A stretch of DNA of 64,000 bases from an uncultured Thermoproteaceae archaeon (GCA_964575955.1 CAZNTG010000007.1:1-64000), one strand, 5' to 3'; shown: positions 13,060 through 56,527, counted from the first letter of the stretch. The notes: a model not told the origin generated them from the letters alone. A program made the numbers and translations.

Positions 13060-13147
13060 GCGGGGGTGCCCGAGCCTGGTCAAAGGGGGCGGGTTCAGGT
13101 CCCGCTGGCGTAGGCCTGCGTGGGTTCAAATCCCACCCCCCGCACCA
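13060..13147 (+). tRNA. tRNA-Leu(CAG), CCA encoded
   Basis: Cloverleaf with long variable arm; anticodon stem GCGGG/CCCGC, loop TTCAGGT. Confidence 0.96.
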
Positions 13148-16789: not shown

Positions 16790-16842
16790 TCAGTTTGGTG
16801 TAGCTTCTTCACATGACTTCCGACCGGTCCAACCATCATCAT
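16790..16842 (-). ncRNA. box C/D guide sRNA (probably tRNA D-arm)
   Basis: Minus strand ATGATGA-TGGTTGGACCGGT-CGGA-..-GTGAAGA-AGCTACACCAAA-CTGA; box C overlaps the stop codon of the upstream gene. Confidence 0.82.
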
Positions 16843-17537
16843 TCTAATCTTTGTCTATTCTTTTCATAGTATGCGATTATTCTTTTATATATTTCTGGTA
16901 CCTTATCTCTAGTTCTTGGATTTTTTGGTACTCCAATAGCTATTACGTATAGTGGTTTCTCATTTGGTTCTGTACATACTAGCTCTCTAATTTCATCATC
17001 GTAGAATGCTCCTATTGCAACAGCTCCAAGGCCCATTCCTGTAGCTTGTAGATATATGTTTTGCCCTGCATGTCCAACTTCAAACATTACGTACTGTATT
17101 CCTCTAGTTCCATAGTATGAGCATGTTCTTTCAAATACTGCTGTTATTACTATATTCACAGCTGCATCATAGACCCATCTTTGATCTAGACATGCATGAT
17201 ATATGTGTGTTCTATAATCACCACTCTTAACTAATAATAATGAATGTGTTTCAACAATGTACTTATACACTCCTGGTTCTAGATTTTTAACACCTCCAGG
17301 TGGAACTACTGCATATATATTTAATGGATATGCTGCTCCAGCACTTGGACATGTTCTAAATCCATGTACTGGCTCTGATATTCCTTGTGCAGACCAGAGT
17401 AGTTGACTTAACATTTCTAAACTTATTGATGCACCTCTGATGAAATCTCTAATACTTCTCCTCAGTAGTATAGCCTCTTCTAGAGTTAGTATACCAGAAA
17501 TCTTTGGATATGGTAAGTGTATTACTTTCCTATTCAT
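16839..17537 (-). CDS. SagB/ThcOx-family FMN nitroreductase
   Basis: RRSIRDF, LLWSAQG, RTCPSAGA.YP, EVGHAGQNIYL, IGAFYD. Confidence 0.92.
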   Translation of the reverse strand: MNRKVIHLPYPKISGILTLEEAILLRRSIRDFIRGASISLEMLSQLLWSAQGISEPVHGFRTCPSAGAAYPLNIYAVVPPGGVKNLEPGVYKYIVETHSLLLVKSGDYRTHIYHACLDQRWVYDAAVNIVITAVFERTCSYYGTRGIQYVMFEVGHAGQNIYLQATGMGLGAVAIGAFYDDEIRELVCTEPNEKPLYVIAIGVPKNPRTRDKVPEIYKRIIAYYEKNRQRLE

Positions 17538-17580: not shown

Positions 17581-18009
17581 CTAACGATGCAATACTTGCA
17601 CAATAGCTTTCTCAACATCTTCAGGTCTTACAGGACATCCAGTTACGTATATTTTTGATCTATATTTAACATCTATACCTCTAGCTTTCAATTCTTCAAT
17701 AATGTAATCCCAGCCTCCTGTAACCATGTAAGAGTCATACCAGATACCTCCACCACATGCACATGAGCCTAATATTATGACATCTCCAAAATTTATTCTT
17801 CCAAATCTCTTAATACTATTTAAAATTCTACAGAAATTACCTAAAGTTCCAGGACCTGTAACTATCGTTATATCATATTCATCATGTTCAATATTGTGAT
17901 CAGGTCTTTCTAAACTGATACCTCTCTCTTCAAGTCTAAATACTCCAGCTAGAAGTTCAATATCACAACCATTACATCCTCCAAGATTTAGATATAGTAT
18001 CTTCACCAT
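17581..18009 (-). CDS. group 4 [NiFe]-hydrogenase small subunit (HycG/NuoB-like)
   Basis: GGCNGCDIE, VTGP, GSCACGGG, GCPVRPE. Confidence 0.9.
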   Translation of the reverse strand: MVKILYLNLGGCNGCDIELLAGVFRLEERGISLERPDHNIEHDEYDITIVTGPGTLGNFCRILNSIKRFGRINFGDVIILGSCACGGGIWYDSYMVTGGWDYIIEELKARGIDVKYRSKIYVTGCPVRPEDVEKAIVQVLHR

Positions 18010-18012
18010 ACT

Positions 18013-18405
18013 TTACACCTTTCCAAATTTTTCAAAGGTAGATAATTTTTTAAACTTACATTTTTCACATCTAATCTCAGTCTTTACCTTATCTTTCAGA
18101 AATTCTAAAACATTCTCAGAATAGTTCATTAATCTTCCGCATACACATTTTGCAATATCTATCTCATGTATTATATACATATCCTCAACCATATTTGCAA
18201 TATAGGAATACTCACTCCCAATTGATAATGCTCCAGTTGGACAATTATCAACACAGTAGCAACATCTTATACATCTTGCAAGATTTAGTATCCACACAAC
18301 TTTATTAGTAGAATATTTCACAACTATTGAATCTGTAGGACATTTTTGACTACATGCATCACATCCAATACATTTAGATACGTCATGTGTAGGATAGCCT
18401 CTCAT
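18013..18405 (-). CDS. 2x[4Fe-4S] hydrogenase subunit (HycF/NuoI-like)
   Basis: RGYP..D..KCIGCDACSQKCP; RCIRCCYCVDNCPTGAL; C-terminal CxC..CxxC. Confidence 0.88.
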   Translation of the reverse strand: MRGYPTHDVSKCIGCDACSQKCPTDSIVVKYSTNKVVWILNLARCIRCCYCVDNCPTGALSIGSEYSYIANMVEDMYIIHEIDIAKCVCGRLMNYSENVLEFLKDKVKTEIRCEKCKFKKLSTFEKFGKV

Positions 18406-19976
18406 ACTCTCACCATGACTAGCCTATCAGTACATGATAGACATGGATCTAGACTTGCAATAATTATTGGGGCTTTATCAATGCTCTCACCAATCAAGAT
18501 TCTTCTTAAAACTGCAAGATTAGCATATGTTGGTGCTCTAACTTTCCATCTATACAGCTTCATGTCATGTCCAGTAATTATGAAATGCACATTTTCGCCT
18601 CTTGGAGCTTCTGTTAAACCTACACCTACCTTACCTGGAGATACTTCATATTCAACTTTTAAATCGCCTTTAATTATTTCATCTCTCTTAAATATTTGAT
18701 CAACAATCTTAATACTTTCATAAGATTCTCTAATTCTAACTACAGCTCTCGCATATGTGTCACCACTATCCATAACAGGAACTTCAAAATCTACATCTCT
18801 ATATGCTGCATATGGTACATACTTTCTAACATCATAATCTATTCCTGATGCTCTAAGTACAGGGCCTACAGCTCCAAGTTTATGTGCATCTTCTTTCGGA
18901 AGTATTCCAATATTTTTCAAACTATTTAATTCTTCACATTTTTCAAAATCTTCTAATACTTTACGTGCATTTACTTTAAATTCTTCAAATATTTTAACAC
19001 ACTTATCTACCTGTTCTTTAGTAAATCCAAATCTAACACCACCAACGATGTTTAATCCATACATCTTTCTATTACCTACAAGAATTTCACAAATATTCAT
19101 TATGTATTCTCTAACTTTTAATAATTTTACAAAATATTCTCTAAGCTTTATTGCATATGCTATAAGTGCTAGTATTAGTAGATGACTTTCAAGTCTTTCA
19201 AGTTCTAACATTAACGTTCTTTCAAATCTAGCTCTTTCAGGTATTTCAATCTTTAAAGCATTTTCAACTGCTTGACAATATGCTGTTGAATGTGTAAATC
19301 CACAAATTCCACATATTCTCTCAGCTATGAATGGTATTTGATCGATATTTAGTCTAGTCTCTCCAATCTTTTCAATTCCTCTAGTTATGTAAGATCCTAT
19401 ATATTGAACATCTACAATCTTACCATTCTCAACCTTAGCTAAGAAATCTTCATGCTCATAGAAGAATGGGTGATGTGGATCAATTTCAACATAGTCTCTA
19501 GGTCTCTCAATTTCACAAGTAGCAACTCTTGAGAGTTTATAATTGTATGGATATGTCTTTCTTAGAGGTCTAATCTCTCTAGAAATTCCCCAATGAAGTA
19601 TAAATCTATACTTATCAATATCATCACCTACACAAGCTTTCAATCCTAGTAAATCCATAGTTTCACATTCACACCATGTTGCTGCAGGTACAGCTCTATG
19701 TACAGGTTTTACACACTCTCCTGAGCTAAGCTTTGTTTCTACAACTATCTTCTTATCTTTAAGTACTAGTATGTAGTATAGTGAAAATCCTGATGTTTCA
19801 ATACCTGACAAATCTACTCCTAAGCATGTACTAAAGTGTGCATTTTTATCGATTACTAGACATTTAATAACATCGTCTACATGTTCTCTATCAACTTGTA
19901 CAATTAGTGTATCTCTAGATATTTGTCTAATACTATCCTTATCAATACCACACTCTACAAGTTTGTCTATGACCAT
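18402..19976 (-). CDS. group 4 [NiFe]-hydrogenase large subunit (HycE-type NuoC+NuoD fusion)
   Basis: L1 ERICGICG and L2 DPCLSC Ni-binding motifs, EAPRGE, RWKVRAPTYAN, short tail after DR. Confidence 0.92.
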   Translation of the reverse strand: MVIDKLVECGIDKDSIRQISRDTLIVQVDREHVDDVIKCLVIDKNAHFSTCLGVDLSGIETSGFSLYYILVLKDKKIVVETKLSSGECVKPVHRAVPAATWCECETMDLLGLKACVGDDIDKYRFILHWGISREIRPLRKTYPYNYKLSRVATCEIERPRDYVEIDPHHPFFYEHEDFLAKVENGKIVDVQYIGSYITRGIEKIGETRLNIDQIPFIAERICGICGFTHSTAYCQAVENALKIEIPERARFERTLMLELERLESHLLILALIAYAIKLREYFVKLLKVREYIMNICEILVGNRKMYGLNIVGGVRFGFTKEQVDKCVKIFEEFKVNARKVLEDFEKCEELNSLKNIGILPKEDAHKLGAVGPVLRASGIDYDVRKYVPYAAYRDVDFEVPVMDSGDTYARAVVRIRESYESIKIVDQIFKRDEIIKGDLKVEYEVSPGKVGVGLTEAPRGENVHFIITGHDMKLYRWKVRAPTYANLAVLRRILIGESIDKAPIIIASLDPCLSCTDRLVMVRV

Positions 19977-21793
19977 CCTAATCTCCTACGTCTTTCTTCA
20001 ATGTTTGCTACTAGCGTTTTTACAGCTTTATCAATATCTGTTTCACAGAATAGTTTACCACCTGTAATCTTCTCCATACACTCCTCTAACCACTCTTTAA
20101 CAAATTTACTTCCTAGTATTGGTAGTTGTACTCCAGAGTGAACTACTATTCCGCTTGCAGCCATTCCAAACATTAATGCCAATATCTCTTCTGCCATTGG
20201 TTCTGGTGCTGATGCAACTACTGGAAGTTTATTGAATGGTATTTTGAGTATTGTTGATATTTCCTGTACTAGTTTTATAATTCTTGCATTATCTGCACAT
20301 CCACCAAATGATATGCATGGTGGTATGTTGTATGTTTCGCAGAATTTTGATAATCCTTCACCTGCGAGTTGTCTTGCTTCTGGTTTTAGAAGTCCTGCAA
20401 GTCCTGCAGCAACGTTCCAACATCCTGTTCCAAATACTATGATGTTATTTCTTATCAATCCTTTTGTTATCTCTACATGTGCCTTATTATGGACAACTTT
20501 AGGTGTTGTACATCCAAATACTATGGCTATACCTCTAATCTGTCCTTCTCTAATAGCGTTTGCTAATGGTTCTAGACTACCCTTTAGGTAGGATTTTAGA
20601 GATTCTATAGACCATCCTATCATTGCTGTTTCAGGTGGTGTTTTTGGTGTAAACATCTTCTCCTCCTTTCTATTCTTAAAGTTCTCTATAGCTAGACTGA
20701 TTATCTTCTTCACTGCTTCATCCATATTTTCAGGATTAACATCGATATGTATAGCACCTCTAACTTTTCCAATTCTACTAGTTGTTACAAGTTTTGTATG
20801 ATACTTCTCACATGCATTGACAATACCCTGCATTGTACATAGGTAATCTACAACAAATAGCTCAACCATTCCTGTTGATAGTACAACTTCACTCATCATG
20901 AAGTTTGCAGGTACTAGAACATTAACTCCAAGTGCATTAACATTAATAGCTTCTTGCTCAACCTCTTTACTTTTAGCAATCTCGATAAGCTTTCTTAGTA
21001 GTGGTCTTTTAGCAATTCTAACAACAATATTTACATAATCTTCACTTATAGCTTTTGGACCCATAGGACCTTTTCTAGGACTTGGAGTACCTGAGATAAC
21101 GTCCTGTAGTGCATATGCTAGATATGCAGATACCCATAGTGCTAATAGTCCAACTCTAAGACAGGTTAGTAGTAGTGTTTCTGGATCTGTACAAACTCCT
21201 TCATGTGTTTTATGTAGTGCTTCTACAATTTCTCTTAAAACTCCTCTAGGTTCAATATCTATCTTCTTAAATATCTCTCTGATCTCTTCAGGTACATTCT
21301 TCTCATATATTACAGATTTTGAAGTTATTTTAGAAATATCTTGAGAAATTGCTTCACATACTTCAGATGCAAGTTTAGTATCATCTTTACCTTCTGTAGA
21401 TATGTTAAATATCTTTGCAAGTTCTTCAAGTCTAGATCTATCAACTATGCTTAATGCTTTACATCTACCATCACATATTGCTGATATGTAGTCTAGCATC
21501 TCCATGAGGAGATCTGTATATGATGATGCACCACCACATACATGTCTAAGTAGACTTCTAGCAACTATTGTATCAACATCAACTCCACATGAACCTCTTG
21601 TAGCACCTTCACCAAAAGGATCAATTCTACAAGGACCTATTAGACAATGTCTACAACATATTCCTAATAGTCCAAATCCACATTGTGGTTGTTGTTTTTC
21701 AAATCTTTCCCATATCGTCTCAACACCATCCTGAATAGCTTTATCATAAAGTTCTTTAGTTGTCTTATCTATAGTAATTTCTTTCTCTGACAT
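19967..21793 (-). CDS. cooS: CooS-like Ni-CO dehydrogenase homologue with a remodelled C-cluster site
   Basis: QPQCGFG..GICCRHCLIGPC...GSCG (D/B clusters), DYLC, GCTT, TGC, GGCADNAR retained; HGH, GICC, catalytic His and Lys absent. Confidence 0.85.
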   Translation of the reverse strand: MSEKEITIDKTTKELYDKAIQDGVETIWERFEKQQPQCGFGLLGICCRHCLIGPCRIDPFGEGATRGSCGVDVDTIVARSLLRHVCGGASSYTDLLMEMLDYISAICDGRCKALSIVDRSRLEELAKIFNISTEGKDDTKLASEVCEAISQDISKITSKSVIYEKNVPEEIREIFKKIDIEPRGVLREIVEALHKTHEGVCTDPETLLLTCLRVGLLALWVSAYLAYALQDVISGTPSPRKGPMGPKAISEDYVNIVVRIAKRPLLRKLIEIAKSKEVEQEAINVNALGVNVLVPANFMMSEVVLSTGMVELFVVDYLCTMQGIVNACEKYHTKLVTTSRIGKVRGAIHIDVNPENMDEAVKKIISLAIENFKNRKEEKMFTPKTPPETAMIGWSIESLKSYLKGSLEPLANAIREGQIRGIAIVFGCTTPKVVHNKAHVEITKGLIRNNIIVFGTGCWNVAAGLAGLLKPEARQLAGEGLSKFCETYNIPPCISFGGCADNARIIKLVQEISTILKIPFNKLPVVASAPEPMAEEILALMFGMAASGIVVHSGVQLPILGSKFVKEWLEECMEKITGGKLFCETDIDKAVKTLVANIEERRRRLGWS

Positions 21794-21895: not shown

Positions 21896-22426
21896 CTATC
21901 TCAATCCTCTCTCAGCTATAATCTTACCTAGAAGTCTCTCAATCCTCAACTTAGCAAGTTCTACCTCTGTTACAAGCATTAACGCACCTGTTGGACATGC
22001 TTCAACACATGCAGGTTTTCTACCACTTCTAACTCTATCTAAACACATGTCACACTTAATGACAACTCTAAGTTCTGGCACTAGTCTAGGATGTGCTATA
22101 GGACATACAAGTGTGCATAATCTACATCCAATGCATCTTGAGGGATTTTGAATAACATATCCAACATCTGTCCTATACATAGCACCTGTTGGACATATTG
22201 ATACACATGGAGGATCATCACAGTGTCTACAGGTTAGTGGTATATTCACATTATCTATCTTGAATACCTTAATTCTAGGTTTAGGTGGTGGATATTCGAA
22301 TACTGCACTATACAGATTTTTAGATGTTGAATGTTCTATAGCACAGGCAATTTCACATGATCTACAGCCAACACATCTATCAACATCAAACATCACTATA
22401 GGTCTACTGGACATCTTAATCTCCAC
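21896..22426 (-). CDS. cooF: CooF-type 4x[4Fe-4S] electron-transfer protein
   Basis: CVGCRSCEIAC, CRHCDDPPCVSICP, CIGCRLCTLVCP, KCDMC..PACVEACPTGAL; directly upstream of cooS. Confidence 0.88.
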   Translation of the reverse strand: MEIKMSSRPIVMFDVDRCVGCRSCEIACAIEHSTSKNLYSAVFEYPPPKPRIKVFKIDNVNIPLTCRHCDDPPCVSICPTGAMYRTDVGYVIQNPSRCIGCRLCTLVCPIAHPRLVPELRVVIKCDMCLDRVRSGRKPACVEACPTGALMLVTEVELAKLRIERLLGKIIAERGLR

Positions 22427-22486
22427 TTATAGAATTTTAGTGAAGATTTATAAAGTAGATCTTATCTTGAAGAAGATGGATAGAGT

Positions 22487-22615: not shown

Positions 22616-23491
22616 ATGTATTTTCCAAATCTTCTAAAACCCATAATTGATATTGCTATTCCCTGGAACATACTTGAAGAATGTCCTGATGATAGAGAGA
22701 AAGTTCGTAAAATTGGATATATTTGTAGAGGTGCTGCAATATTTCAAGTAGATACATTAGTAATATATAAGTATGGTAAGGTTAGTGATAGAGATTTAAA
22801 ATTTCTAAAGAGAAATCTTGAATATCTAGTAACACCACCATACCTTAAGAAAGATCTATTTAAGATAGAACCTGAACTTAAACTAGCTGGACTATTACCA
22901 CCACTTAAAACACCTGCACATTATGCATCTAGAGGTGATTTAAAGCCTGGAAGTATAGTTGAAGGTCTTGTAGTTAAGTGGGATGGATATTTCAGTATTG
23001 TTAAGATTGGTGATAATGTTTTTGCAAAAATTCCAAAACCATATCCAATAGGTTCAAAGCTAGTACTTAGAATTGAAGCTGAGTCTGAGAGAGGTAGAAT
23101 GTATAGAGCACATGTTGTAGATAAATCAAAATTAAAAATATACTGGAATATTAATATTGAAGAGAGATTTCTTAAAGAAATTTTGAAAGATGATAAGTAT
23201 GGATGTATAATACTTACAGGTAGAGAAGGTAGGAGTTTAGCTAAATGCTATAATGATCTTATAAATATTTTAAATAGAGTTAAGAATGAAGATAAGAAAG
23301 TATTAGTATTTTTTGGATCACCAAAGAAAGGTATTGATGAAATTTTTAAAGAAGAAGGTTTAGAAATATCAAATTACCTCTTCATAAATTTCATACCTGA
23401 GCAAGGAGTTGAAACGGTGAGAACTGAAGAAGCCATAATTGCAGTATTATCAATATTACACTTCATTAGATGTTGTATCTTAGGAAAATAG
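22616..23491 (+). CDS. SPOUT-class RNA methyltransferase (DUF171/SPOUT1 family)
   Basis: KIGYICR.AAIF.V, YLVTPPYLKK, GLLPPLKTPAH, FGSP..G, NFIPEQGVETVRTEEA. Confidence 0.92.
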   Translation: MYFPNLLKPIIDIAIPWNILEECPDDREKVRKIGYICRGAAIFQVDTLVIYKYGKVSDRDLKFLKRNLEYLVTPPYLKKDLFKIEPELKLAGLLPPLKTPAHYASRGDLKPGSIVEGLVVKWDGYFSIVKIGDNVFAKIPKPYPIGSKLVLRIEAESERGRMYRAHVVDKSKLKIYWNINIEERFLKEILKDDKYGCIILTGREGRSLAKCYNDLINILNRVKNEDKKVLVFFGSPKKGIDEIFKEEGLEISNYLFINFIPEQGVETVRTEEAIIAVLSILHFIRCCILGK

Positions 23492-24444
23492 TTAATTATT
23501 ATACAAAATTTACAATCTATAGAGTGAAAGAGATAGCAGTAATATTAACACCTCCAAGACCAGAAATTATTCCAGATTTGGAAGAAGTTGTTAAAAATTT
23601 TAAAACATTCATAATAGAAATTCCTGAAATATCAACATTTAGAGATTTTCTTGAAGATAGAGTACCTGTTGATGAAGTATTGATGGATCTTGAACTTGAA
23701 TATCCATTATTTACTAGAGAGTTCTTATTAATGTGTAAGAGACTTTATAAGAATGGTATAGATATTCTACCTCTAGATCCATATCAGGAAATTGCTACAA
23801 ATATAAAAGTTAAACTATTCTTTAGGAAAGGTCTTGAAGAACTTGATAGAGATTTAACAGCTAGGTATATTGCTATGATTGAGCTAAATCTCGGTAAAGT
23901 ATTTCAAGAGTATAGTAGAGCATTTTCTAGAAGAGATTTTGATAAACTTATAGAAACAACTATGAAATATGCTAAACTTGATGCTGAACGTATGAGATTT
24001 AGAACTGAACTTAGAATTAGAAAGTTATGTGAAATATATAGTAGACTTAGAAAGCCAGTAGCAGTACATACACATTTCATAAATAGACTTCTACCTAGAG
24101 AAATTGAACGTAGGCTAAATGTTGAAGTTGAAGTTATAGACCTTTACAAGGACATAATTTCAAAACTTGGATTAGAAGAATTTGACCATCCAGGACGTGT
24201 ATTAACAGAAAAATATCTTCTACATGATATACATAACGTTGAAGAGTTGAAGATATTAGCAGCAAAGACAATAATACTAGTATCTCAATACCCACCTAGA
24301 GAACTAATGCCAACAAGAGAAGAGAGATACCCAATGTTAATGAAAGATTACGAAATTATGAAAATTATCGGAAAAATAGACAAACTAGAAGATTTAAAGA
24401 CCATATACGAAAAAATGTCTAGAAAGCCCGCGACACACCGATGA
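23470..24444 (+). CDS. hypothetical protein
   Basis: Long ORF with host codon usage, co-oriented with the SPOUT gene; start uncertain. Confidence 0.7.
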   Translation: MLYLRKIVNYYTKFTIYRVKEIAVILTPPRPEIIPDLEEVVKNFKTFIIEIPEISTFRDFLEDRVPVDEVLMDLELEYPLFTREFLLMCKRLYKNGIDILPLDPYQEIATNIKVKLFFRKGLEELDRDLTARYIAMIELNLGKVFQEYSRAFSRRDFDKLIETTMKYAKLDAERMRFRTELRIRKLCEIYSRLRKPVAVHTHFINRLLPREIERRLNVEVEVIDLYKDIISKLGLEEFDHPGRVLTEKYLLHDIHNVEELKILAAKTIILVSQYPPRELMPTREERYPMLMKDYEIMKIIGKIDKLEDLKTIYEKMSRKPATHR

Positions 24445-56422: not shown

Positions 56423-56527
56423 GGGCCCGTAGCTCAGCAAGGCAGAGCGGCGGACAACCGCCGAGTGGGCGGTTGGCCGTAGCTCCAGACCCGTAGGTCC
56501 CGGGTTCAAATCCCGGCGGGCCCACCA
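56423..56527 (+). tRNA. tRNA-Trp(CCA) with a 28-nt intron at position 30/31 (56454..56481)
   Basis: Removing ACAACCGCCGAGTGGGCGGTTGGCCGTA gives stem GCGGG/CCCGT and loop CTCCAGA; strict BHB: GAG/CTC, helix CGGC/GCCG, bulges GG|A and TA|G, intron stem CAACCGCC/GGCGGTTG. Confidence 0.95.

Follow-up and report, generated by a model that had tools for sequence, protein, structure and literature searches.

Carbon monoxide dehydrogenases (CODHs) of the CooS family perform CO chemistry at the C-cluster, a Ni-containing cubane with a pendant Fe. For the D. vulgaris enzyme (DvCODH), PMC6168284 describes a pendant Fe bound by His266 and Cys302, a cubane held by four Cys, with Cys519 on Ni, and Lys556 as the proposed general base. 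Single substitutions of ligand or acid/base residues lower CO oxidation, according to Inoue 2019 (PMC6344411). The subject here is a gene from an uncultured Thermoproteaceae archaeon of hydrothermal vents (GCA_964575955.1, CAZNTG010000007.1:1-64000; this whole stretch of 64,000 nucleotides is the window) that encodes a CooS homologue in which the pendant-Fe half of the C-cluster site is removed, referred to below as the variant CooS (gene, variant cooS). The protein probably serves hydrogenase modules as a functional but non-canonical Fe-S partner with a cubane held by four Cys, and it has loop-deleted relatives in other archaea and in bacteria.

CODH relatives with altered chemistry have been described before. 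CooS-V (ChCODH-V, clade D; PDB 7b7q) is Ni-free and CO-inactive and carries an Fe-S-O hybrid-type cluster (Jeoung 2022, as reported in PMC13240472 and PMC13592312); it is active only on hydroxylamine and has Glu at the Cys295 position (PMC13240472, PMC13592312). In clade B, Cys333 is replaced by Asp/Glu and the gene belongs to an ABC-transporter operon; the clade B enzyme of Ruminococcus flavefaciens (RfCODH) has Asp at this position and oxidizes CO at ~13 mU/mg, and its authors argue for repurposing (PMC13592312). Among CdhA-type enzymes, groups A-4 and A-6 in Table 2 of Inoue 2019 have the His and the first C-cluster Cys replaced (D,P; N,S), with the last four Cys kept and the acid/base residues altered (PMC6344411). 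CO-dependent energy-converting hydrogenase clusters are exemplified by the 16-gene CODH-hydrogenase-antiporter cluster of Thermococcus onnurineus (PMC4731540).

Active site of the variant CooS

The gene and its product are as follows.

19967..21793, minus strand: variant cooS, open reading frame (ORF) with an ATG start, encoding a 608-amino-acid member of the CooS family whose C-cluster site lacks its pendant-Fe half

The original prediction, made from the sequence of the window, had reported a full-length ORF at this position. Its length stands, and its strand is corrected to minus: the plus-strand reading contains many stops, and the minus strand holds the only ORF. The sole Pfam domain is PF03063 (378 bits, residues 45-587), and NCBIfam TIGR01702 is matched at 508.6 bits, above the cut-off of 478; the orthologues of congeners score 466-500 bits, some of them under that cut-off. 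The best solved relative is the CODH of Thermococcus sp. AM4 (PDB 6t7j, 523 bits, residues 4-607), and ChCODH-V (7b7q) is the lowest of 36 PDB matches at 264.5 bits. An AlphaFold2 (AF2) model has a mean predicted local distance difference test score (pLDDT) of 89.8 and a predicted template modelling score (pTM) of 0.91, with pLDDT of 81-96 over residues 250-300, and its Foldseek comparison with 6t7j (TMq 0.96) indicates an intact CooS fold. The only poorly predicted part is the Cys-rich D/B segment 38-62, as expected for a model without cofactors. The protein is thus a full-length CooS homologue in sequence and fold, although ~14-16 residues shorter than canonical CooS.

Residue numbering was anchored on the DvCODH row of the alignments and then mapped to the window protein, and codons were checked. 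Key columns were read in two alignments, A1 (20 sequences) and A2 (22 sequences). Counting along the DvCODH row places His266 at the second His of the HGHNP motif and Cys301/302 at the CC pair, and Cys340/448/478/519 and Lys556 match the expected motifs; the numbering of ChCODH-II agrees with the PDB titles H93A, H96D, C295D and K563A/H. The resulting sites, all on the minus strand, are listed below.

21587..21682, minus strand: Cys of the D and B clusters, C38 and C46 (D pair), C47, C50, C55 and C69 (B), all kept and invariant in A1 and A2
21509..21520, minus strand: Y92...L95 in place of the proton-relay His93/His96 of ChCODH-II (from the alignments)
21005..21019, minus strand: R259-I260-A261-K262-R263 in place of HGHNP (from the alignments)
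20909..20914, minus strand: V294/P295, junction of the in-frame loop deletion (gap in the alignments)
20837..20839, minus strand: C319, cubane ligand ChCys333/DvCys340, invariant
20510..20512, minus strand: C428, equivalent to ChCys446/DvCys448, invariant
20420..20422, minus strand: C458, equivalent to ChCys476/DvCys478, invariant
20297..20299, minus strand: C499, Ni ligand ChCys526/DvCys519, invariant (role as given in PMC6168284)
20186..20188, minus strand: E536 in place of the general-base Lys (ChLys563/DvLys556, 'SEK' motif; from the alignments)

All motifs quoted in the original prediction occur in the translation and align as it had claimed to 6t7j and to canonical relatives: the D- and B-cluster Cys and four C-cluster Cys are present (C38-C69 set; C319, C428, C458, C499), the CC loop is deleted in frame, and both the His-rich helix (Y92/L95) and the Lys of the EK motif (E536) are lost. 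Its statement that HGHNP is replaced needs a refinement. Because the pendant-Fe ligand is the second His of that motif, the ligand position is Ala261 here, and it is the preceding His that has become Arg259. The deleted loop spans 16 alignment columns in A1 and 14 in A2 and contained the CC pair with the pendant-Fe ligand Cys (ChCODH-II Cys295/DvCODH Cys302); in the AF2 model the junction is a tight turn from strand 290-293 to helix 298-307. Compensating His or Cys ligands, which the prediction had named as a possible contrary outcome, do not align at the lost positions, and within the aligned subfamily no Glu or Asp substitutes for the ligand Cys; the loop itself is gone.

Because the pendant Fe has lost both its ligand His and the loop with its ligand Cys, and because the general-base Lys and the two leading His of the proton relay are missing too, the protein would be unable to run the canonical Ni,Fe-CODH mechanism. 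Neither canonical water activation at a pendant Fe nor proton handling by Lys and His would be expected, given the established CODH chemistry in PMC6168284 and PMC6344411. From this loss of ligands and base we infer, as the prediction did, that the variant CooS is probably not a CO dehydrogenase.

Conservation and selection

A search of 5.8 billion proteins was used to examine relatives, and the pattern counts cover the best 120 matches. Twelve clusters form a subfamily of 608-615 amino acids at 49-100% identity to the window protein; the rest are at most 43% identical and 632 or more amino acids long. One cluster (P0002) is 100% identical to the window protein and was dropped from the counts, which leaves 11. 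Over the key columns the subfamily reads Y/Q-L-R-A/V-gap-gap-C-C-C-C-E in 11/11 clusters, and the canonical pattern H-H-H-H-C-C-C-C-C-C-K occurs in all 108 others, a split far outside what chance would produce. The His93 position is Tyr in 10 clusters and Gln in one, the His96 position is Leu throughout, and the ligand-His position is Ala except for one cluster with Val. The loop is absent in 11/11 subfamily rows and kept in 108/108 canonical rows, the replacement of Lys563 by Glu divides the sequences in the same way, and C319, C428, C458 and C499 are kept in every subfamily cluster. The 11 clusters form one clade with full support in the SH-like approximate likelihood ratio test (SH-aLRT 100) on a long stem (0.51), nested among archaeal canonical CooS and not with sequences of the CooS-V type.

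The gene has orthologues in each of the 7 species of the window's genus and in the one species of a second genus (G003), both genera being uncultured Thermoproteota; the order's other 54 genomes yielded none. Their distribution, sequence and rates bear on the possibility that the gene is a decaying paralogue of a canonical cooS. Decay could account for the long stem branch and for the co-occurrence with another CooS paralogue, but the reading frame is intact in 8 species and the same pattern persists over the whole 49-100% range of identity. Ratios of nonsynonymous to synonymous substitution (dN/dS) by the Nei-Gojobori method (NG86) are lowest for the most similar sequences, at 0.057 and 0.067 for the two closest pairs. 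The 14 computable pairs of 21 range over 0.057-0.365, most at about 0.06-0.18, all as rough values because dS exceeds 1.2 throughout and is saturated. In the G000-G011 comparison the variant CooS is more conserved (0.78) than hycE (0.62), cooF (0.73) and a housekeeping neighbour (0.66). Residues 231-290, the remodelled stretch, are among its best-conserved parts, and in windows 261-290 mean pairwise identity is 0.78 in the subfamily versus 0.50-0.54 in canonical relatives.

Decay is therefore extremely improbable: the pattern is common to 11/11 clusters, dN/dS is low, and the remodelled segment varies less than the same stretch of canonical enzymes. On these comparisons the gene is judged not to be decaying but to be functional and kept by purifying selection. 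The original prediction had argued for repurposing, with the losses confined to the half of the site that performs CO chemistry. Its case is supported by orthologues that share these losses, by purifying selection, by the conserved remodelled segment and by the confident fold; the alternative it had raised, canonical relatives with relaxed selection on this copy, is not what was found, as 11/11 subfamily relatives are non-canonical and dN/dS is low.

Operon and hydrogenase partner

In the window's genus the variant gene lies in an operon with the order cooF-variant cooS-hycE-hycF-hycG(-sagB), all on one strand. The other features of this operon in the window are given here.

22447..22454, minus strand: candidate TATA-like TTTATAAA box, ~21-28 nucleotides upstream of the GTG start (22426) of the cooF-like gene (from reading the sequence)
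21896..22426, minus strand: cooF/hycB-like polyferredoxin, 176 amino acids, 16 invariant Cys in four [4Fe-4S] motifs (PF13247, 82.6 bits; alignment A3)
18402..19976, minus strand: hycE-like [NiFe] large subunit with a fused NuoC-like N-terminus, 524 amino acids (PF00346, PF00374, PF00329)
18013..18405, minus strand: hycF/nuoI-like 2x[4Fe-4S] ferredoxin subunit, 130 amino acids (Fer4 families)
17581..18009, minus strand: hycG/nuoB-like hydrogenase small subunit, 142 amino acids (PF01058, 45.9 bits)
16839..17537, minus strand: SagB-type nitroreductase-family (flavin mononucleotide) protein, 232 amino acids (PF00881, 93 bits; TIGR03605, 130 bits against a cut-off of 78)

The stop of variant cooS and the start of the hycE-like gene overlap by 10 nucleotides (19967-19976), an overlap that the original prediction had noted. 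The hycE-like product is closest in the PDB to subunit 5 of E. coli formate hydrogenlyase (FHL; 7z0s_E, 285 bits) and contains both the N- and C-terminal CxxC Ni-binding motifs; together with the NuoB-like small subunit, the NuoI-like ferredoxin and the hypD of the genome, these are traits of group 4 [NiFe] hydrogenases. The best NCBIfam match of the hycF-like product is the FHL Fe-S subunit PRK12387, at 74 bits and under the cut-off of 204. Its C-terminal tail has four further Cys (CxC...CxxC), which could bind Zn or another cluster.

In CO-dependent hydrogenase clusters, CooS is accompanied by cooC. No cooC-like gene was found in the window operon with Pfam and NCBIfam scans, in agreement with the prediction. 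Membrane subunits of the NuoH-like or NuoL-like/antiporter type are likewise absent from the operon, and no hydrophobic 19-mer above 1.6 occurs in its non-CooS proteins.

Synteny was compared over 7 loci that carry the variant gene (the G012 locus, with the same coordinates as that of G011, was left out). Adjacency of variant cooS and hycE is found in 6/7 (the window, L017, L018, L019, L020 and L022), and in 5 of these 6 cooF lies immediately upstream, with L020 having it displaced. The hycG-like orthologues follow the ferredoxin gene in L017-L020, and sagB ends the cluster in the window, L017, L018 and L019, is absent from L020, and would lie beyond the end of L022, which stops short.

These gene arrangements bear on a further alternative, that the protein is a redox or gas sensor or a regulator of the adjacent hydrogenase and not an electron-carrying subunit. 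A catalytic apparatus lost around a retained cluster site would suit such a role, as would the G003 gene, which stands apart from the hydrogenase genes. The role is nevertheless very unlikely, since PF03063 is the only Pfam domain and no DNA-binding or signalling domain accompanies it, the gene is translationally coupled to hycE, and the full B/D wire and the CooF linkage are conserved.

The ancestry of the hydrogenase module is suggested by a sister family, in which the gene of an orthologous large subunit (45% identity) stands at the head of an operon of the usual membrane-bound type, with membrane subunits. A cooS lies divergent from this operon, and the N-terminal part of it that is available keeps the canonical pair of His. 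Because the sister family pairs a membrane-bound orthologue with a canonical-looking cooS, the window module appears to have arisen by reduction from a membrane-bound hydrogenlyase of the CO type.

Several features of the surroundings were also recorded. Beyond the cooF end of the operon lie an RNA methyltransferase gene (22616-23491, plus strand; PF02598) and an overlapping 324-amino-acid ORF without a Pfam match (23470-24444, plus strand); both are syntenic with this end of the operon in four congeners, and in G003 the methyltransferase gene adjoins hycE-hycF. Two tRNA matches in the window (56423-56524 and 13060-13144, both plus strand) are 102 and 85 nucleotides long against a 71-position model, which suggests an intron or a long variable arm, something common in Thermoproteota. 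Three further HycE-like matches with 35% identity (G001:C3:24534-25997 and 265432-266895; G002:C45:384-1847) each have one in-frame TAG; each is probably a NuoC-like gene and a NuoD-like gene that lie next to each other in the same frame.

Loop-deleted CooS in other lineages

The loop deletion extends beyond this subfamily. In a scan of 1.84 billion representatives, key columns were scored in 73 full-length sequences of 150 listed, the 77 shorter ones being dropped, and two further loop-deleted families emerged. The P0121 family is archaeal (P0121, P0272-P0286; 16 clusters, 609-616 amino acids, 65-100% identity) and has the pattern R-E-R-[M/L/V]-gap-gap-C-C-C-C-K, with Arg/Glu at His93/96 and Lys563 kept. 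The P0168 family is bacterial (P0168, P0375-P0380; 7 clusters, 585-603 amino acids), reads Q-E-[F/Y/C]-Q-gap-gap-C-C-C-C-K and has no Arg at the Arg259 position; its records are partly named 'carbon monoxide dehydrogenase [Proteobacteria bacterium]'. When 401 genomes sampled evenly from the phylum were searched with P0121, the matches were all at or below 42% identity (6 genomes at E<=1e-110).

The context of the P0121 family was read from five metagenome loci (L091-L095), whose proteins are 63-67% identical to P0286. A cooF-like gene lies directly upstream of cooS in 5/5, and antiporter-type genes (PF00361, Mrp/NuoL-like) surround it in three, with a NuoH-like gene in one; the remaining two loci are, respectively, too short and occupied by unrelated neighbours. 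The P0121-family contigs stop before any large subunit.

On the tree the loop deletion needs at least two origins. The bacterial P0168 family is independent and sister to the 662-amino-acid Desulfobulbaceae-type canonical CooS. The window subfamily and the P0121 family group with SH-aLRT of 98-99 under LG+G4; under the C20 mixture model the pair alone receives 40, and 91 together with P0122, with long-branch attraction flagged. Support for a common origin of both archaeal loop-deleted subfamilies is thus model-dependent. P0122 itself is a 630-amino-acid singleton that groups with both archaeal subfamilies; it keeps the CC loop and has Arg for His93, Ser for His259 and Asp for the ligand His. 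It may represent an intermediate state, or its grouping may be a long-branch artefact.

The C-site Cys are invariant over the three subfamilies, which total 34 clusters. Second-shell positions are altered in all three, for example the His that precedes the Ni-Cys motif by two residues and the canonical Lys at window position 121, which is Arg in each, and Arg259 is fixed in both archaeal subfamilies. Since several second-shell positions change in all three subfamilies, the alignments argue for convergent remodelling around a kept cubane.

Other CooS and CooC-like genes in the genome

The window's genome is 1.52 Mb and 94.7% complete; it contains hypD, two CdhA-like genes and a second CooS paralogue, and neither small-subunit (SSU) rRNA nor mcrA was found in it. 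All 7 genomes of the window's genus carry two CooS-type genes, so the variant is nowhere in the genus the sole CooS. The second CooS of the window's genome (G000, contig C15:5047-6846, L001:1393-3312; 639 amino acids, TIGR01702 638 bits) keeps all metal ligands, but Tyr and Val stand in place of His93 and His96, Thr in place of both His259 and Cys294, and Gln in place of Lys563. Because of these substitutions, G000 is without a fully canonical CooS. Beside this paralogue lie an FwdD-like ORF, molybdopterin-binding, and an Mtd gene (PF01993). The congener G013 has a fully canonical CooS beside a CooC-like gene and CdhD. Outside the operon, two MinD/ParA-type CooC-like ORFs with a GCxC motif (C9:69253 and C10:31253) show 30-33% identity to the CooC-like gene that adjoins canonical cooS in a congener.

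Such CooC-like ATPases are among the points that would allow the variant CooS to be a CODH or CO2 reductase after all, by a non-canonical mechanism in which, for example, a [Ni-3Fe-4S] cubane works with an Arg as Lewis acid or anion clamp in place of the pendant Fe. The Ni-ligand and cubane Cys are kept, Arg259 is fixed in both archaeal subfamilies, and the genomic position, with cooF upstream and a group-4 hydrogenase downstream, is that of CooS in CO-dependent clusters. We nonetheless consider this mechanism improbable. The pendant-Fe ligands, the general-base Lys (in the window subfamily) and His93/His96 are lost together, and single substitutions of this kind already lower CO oxidation (Inoue 2019). 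CooS-V, with Glu for Cys295, and clade B RfCODH are described as having no or trace CO activity. The operon is without cooC, another CooS is present in every genome of the genus, and the bacterial loop-deleted subfamily has no Arg at the Arg259 position.

Proposed function

Beyond its probable role as an Fe-S partner of hydrogenase modules, the variant CooS may still be a catalytic redox head that acts on a non-CO substrate, a proposal in which our confidence is slightly less than even. Its all-Cys four-ligand site would most likely hold a cubane, a plain [4Fe-4S] or possibly a Ni-substituted one, and the loop deletion would leave a newly fixed pocket of Arg259, Lys262, Arg263, Tyr92 and Glu536 beside it, in which Arg259, Glu536 and Tyr92 may be in contact. 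The protein would exchange electrons between a small non-CO substrate, for which a small oxyanion or C1 species is a guess, and H+/H2. Electrons could pass from the remodelled C-site through the B and D clusters to the four clusters of the CooF-like protein, then through the HycF-like and HycG-like subunits to the [NiFe] site of the HycE-like subunit, so that the path would end in a soluble, FHL-like [NiFe] hydrogenase. Catalysis is favoured by the conservation and recurrence of the site and its new shell, by the Arg and Lys added to the pocket, and by the place of the protein in an FHL-like module, which is that of the dehydrogenase. We infer the cluster type, the loss of CO activity, the existence of a substrate and the direction of electron flow. 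Two of the three loop-deleted subfamilies adjoin CooF and group-4 hydrogenase-type genes, which keeps alive a catalytic electron-donating role as well as the small chance of CO chemistry.

The same site could instead be a relic, with no catalytic function, in which the B-D-B dimer and a structural Cys4 cubane wire or hold CooF and the hydrogenase together or dock ferredoxin; the cofactor-less relic domain of the complex I subunit NuoG is a comparable case. A cubane saturated by four Cys, the absence of both acid/base residues and of the proton relay, and the conservation of the D/B Cys and CooF linkage are all consistent with a relay, and a hydrogenase that is the membrane-less, reduced form of a membrane-bound ancestor fits general streamlining. 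A relic does not readily explain why the C-site Cys and the new residues around them are invariant in three subfamilies (34 clusters), why the remodelled segment is under more constraint than in true CODHs, or why the same architecture arose at least twice, and the hydrogenase module needs an electron source or sink that the operon does not otherwise encode. A mere relay is therefore doubtful, although it deserves serious weight.

Several observations weigh against the proposal of a catalytic hydrogenase partner. Four Cys all on the cubane leave no evident open metal coordination site, which favours a mere relay, and the genomic context yields no substrate candidate. The operon link is not universal, because G003 splits its genes over three loci: variant cooS lies among ribosomal and housekeeping genes, and hycE-hycF and hycG are intact at two others. 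Queries with NuoH-, NuoD- and antiporter-like sequences found no dedicated orphan membrane partner for the hydrogenase in the genome; its NuoH-/antiporter-like genes sit in other clusters with NuoD- or NuoC-like genes of their own, C6 holding a NuoC and NuoH pair. The physiology of a hydrogenase with neither membrane subunits nor an orphan partner is unclear. Prediction of a complex between the variant CooS and CooF gave a score of 0.32 (best of 3 controls 0.00; partner pLDDT at least 86; runs agreeing in at least 94% of contacts). The mark applied was reached by 58/80 solved complexes and 2/110 mismatched pairs, and at scores of 0.60 or less by only 7 of the 80 solved complexes plus both passing mismatches, counts that are only rough here as custom alignments were used; the prediction is thus weak support, and its weakness counts on this side. 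Saturation of dS, with 7/21 pairs not computable, limits the selection argument in the same way.

A broader version of the catalytic proposal is more speculative, and we regard it as unlikely on present evidence. The loop-deleted CooS (34 clusters, 3 subfamilies, at least 2 origins) would form a distinct enzyme class with an all-Cys Ni-Fe-S or Fe-S cubane and no pendant iron, in which the second shell, Arg259 in archaeal forms, binds and polarizes an anionic or C1 substrate such as formate/CO2, and low-potential electrons are fed via CooF to group-4 hydrogenases. If true, vent archaea and some bacteria of the sulfur cycle would have a 'hydrogenlyase' chemistry that needs neither Mo nor W.

Significance

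The variant CooS passes TIGR01702 ('anaerobic carbon-monoxide dehydrogenase catalytic subunit'), and public records give this name to members of the subfamily. Together with the adjacent hydrogenase, it would be misread as hydrogenogenic CO oxidation in vent Thermoproteota; its presence should not count as proof of CO use. It is also a natural experiment: evolution has at least twice excised the whole pendant-Fe half of the C-cluster and kept the cubane half and the electron wire. Which metals such a site holds and how it reacts are directly relevant to the division of labour between Ni and Fe in the C-cluster, and to minimal Ni-Fe-S catalysts for CO2 conversion. Its partner, a membrane-less derivative of an FHL-type group-4 hydrogenase, is itself an unusual form.

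Comparison with known systems

Canonical CooS (6t7j, ChCODH-II, DvCODH) shares with the variant the full-length fold, the D/B Cys and the four cubane/Ni Cys, and is also partnered by a CooF-type polyferredoxin and a group-4 hydrogenase. The variant differs in the absence of the pendant-Fe ligands, the general-base Lys and His93/His96, in having no cooC in its operon, and in a hydrogenase partner without membrane subunits, unlike that of canonical CooS.

The soluble arm of E. coli FHL (FdhF-HycB-HycF-HycG-HycE; 7z0s) has the same module order as the operon described here. Its subunits serve as dehydrogenase head, four-cluster ferredoxin, two-cluster ferredoxin, and small and large [NiFe] subunits. 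The head is a Mo formate dehydrogenase in E. coli, whereas it is a CooS derivative in the window, and the membrane subunits HycC and HycD have no counterpart in the operon. CO-dependent energy-converting hydrogenase clusters place cooF-cooS beside group-4 hydrogenase or antiporter genes, and the P0121 family, in 3/5 loci, sits in antiporter/NuoH-type clusters of this kind. Their CooS is canonical; the variant lacks the catalytic half-site and, in the window's genus, the membrane subunits as well.

Among repurposed enzymes, CooS-V is likewise a CooS scaffold that gave up CO chemistry, so the idea of repurposing is already published. CooS-V keeps the loop, with Glu at Cys295, whereas the variant has the loop deleted and its ligands unreplaced by carboxylate or His. 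Assignment of the variant to the CooS-V type was rejected: it has neither the loop nor the Glu, and 7b7q is its weakest PDB match. A hybrid cluster protein was rejected as well (TIGR01703, 24.2 bits against a cut-off of 360.8). Clade B resembles the variant in combining a CODH fold with a compromised proton pathway and changed C-cluster ligation, but alters Cys333, which the variant keeps as C319 while losing the pendant-Fe half; membership in clade B was rejected on the retained C319 and on neighbours that are cooF and hydrogenase genes, not ABC transporters. The closest published residue pattern is that of groups A-4 and A-6, clade A CdhA proteins of no known function that carry substitutions and not, as here, a loop deletion.

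Published classifications and surveys of Ni-CODHs (PMC6344411, PMC8776680, PMC13240472 and PMC13079737) filter out sequences deleted at these residues, and the way in which clades A-H were built therefore leaves no place for the loop-deleted class. Literature searches found no account of a CooS with this deletion, but they did not extend to the supplements of Inoue 2019/2022, whose tables may include the sequences that were filtered out. Judged from the alignments, what is new relative to the published repurposed CODHs is the clean deletion of the ligand loop, with a non-ligating residue at the His position, in otherwise canonical CooS lineages of archaea and, separately, of bacteria. Gene order in the loci compared indicates that the class is also distinct from the published ones in staying tied to CooF and hydrogenase genes.

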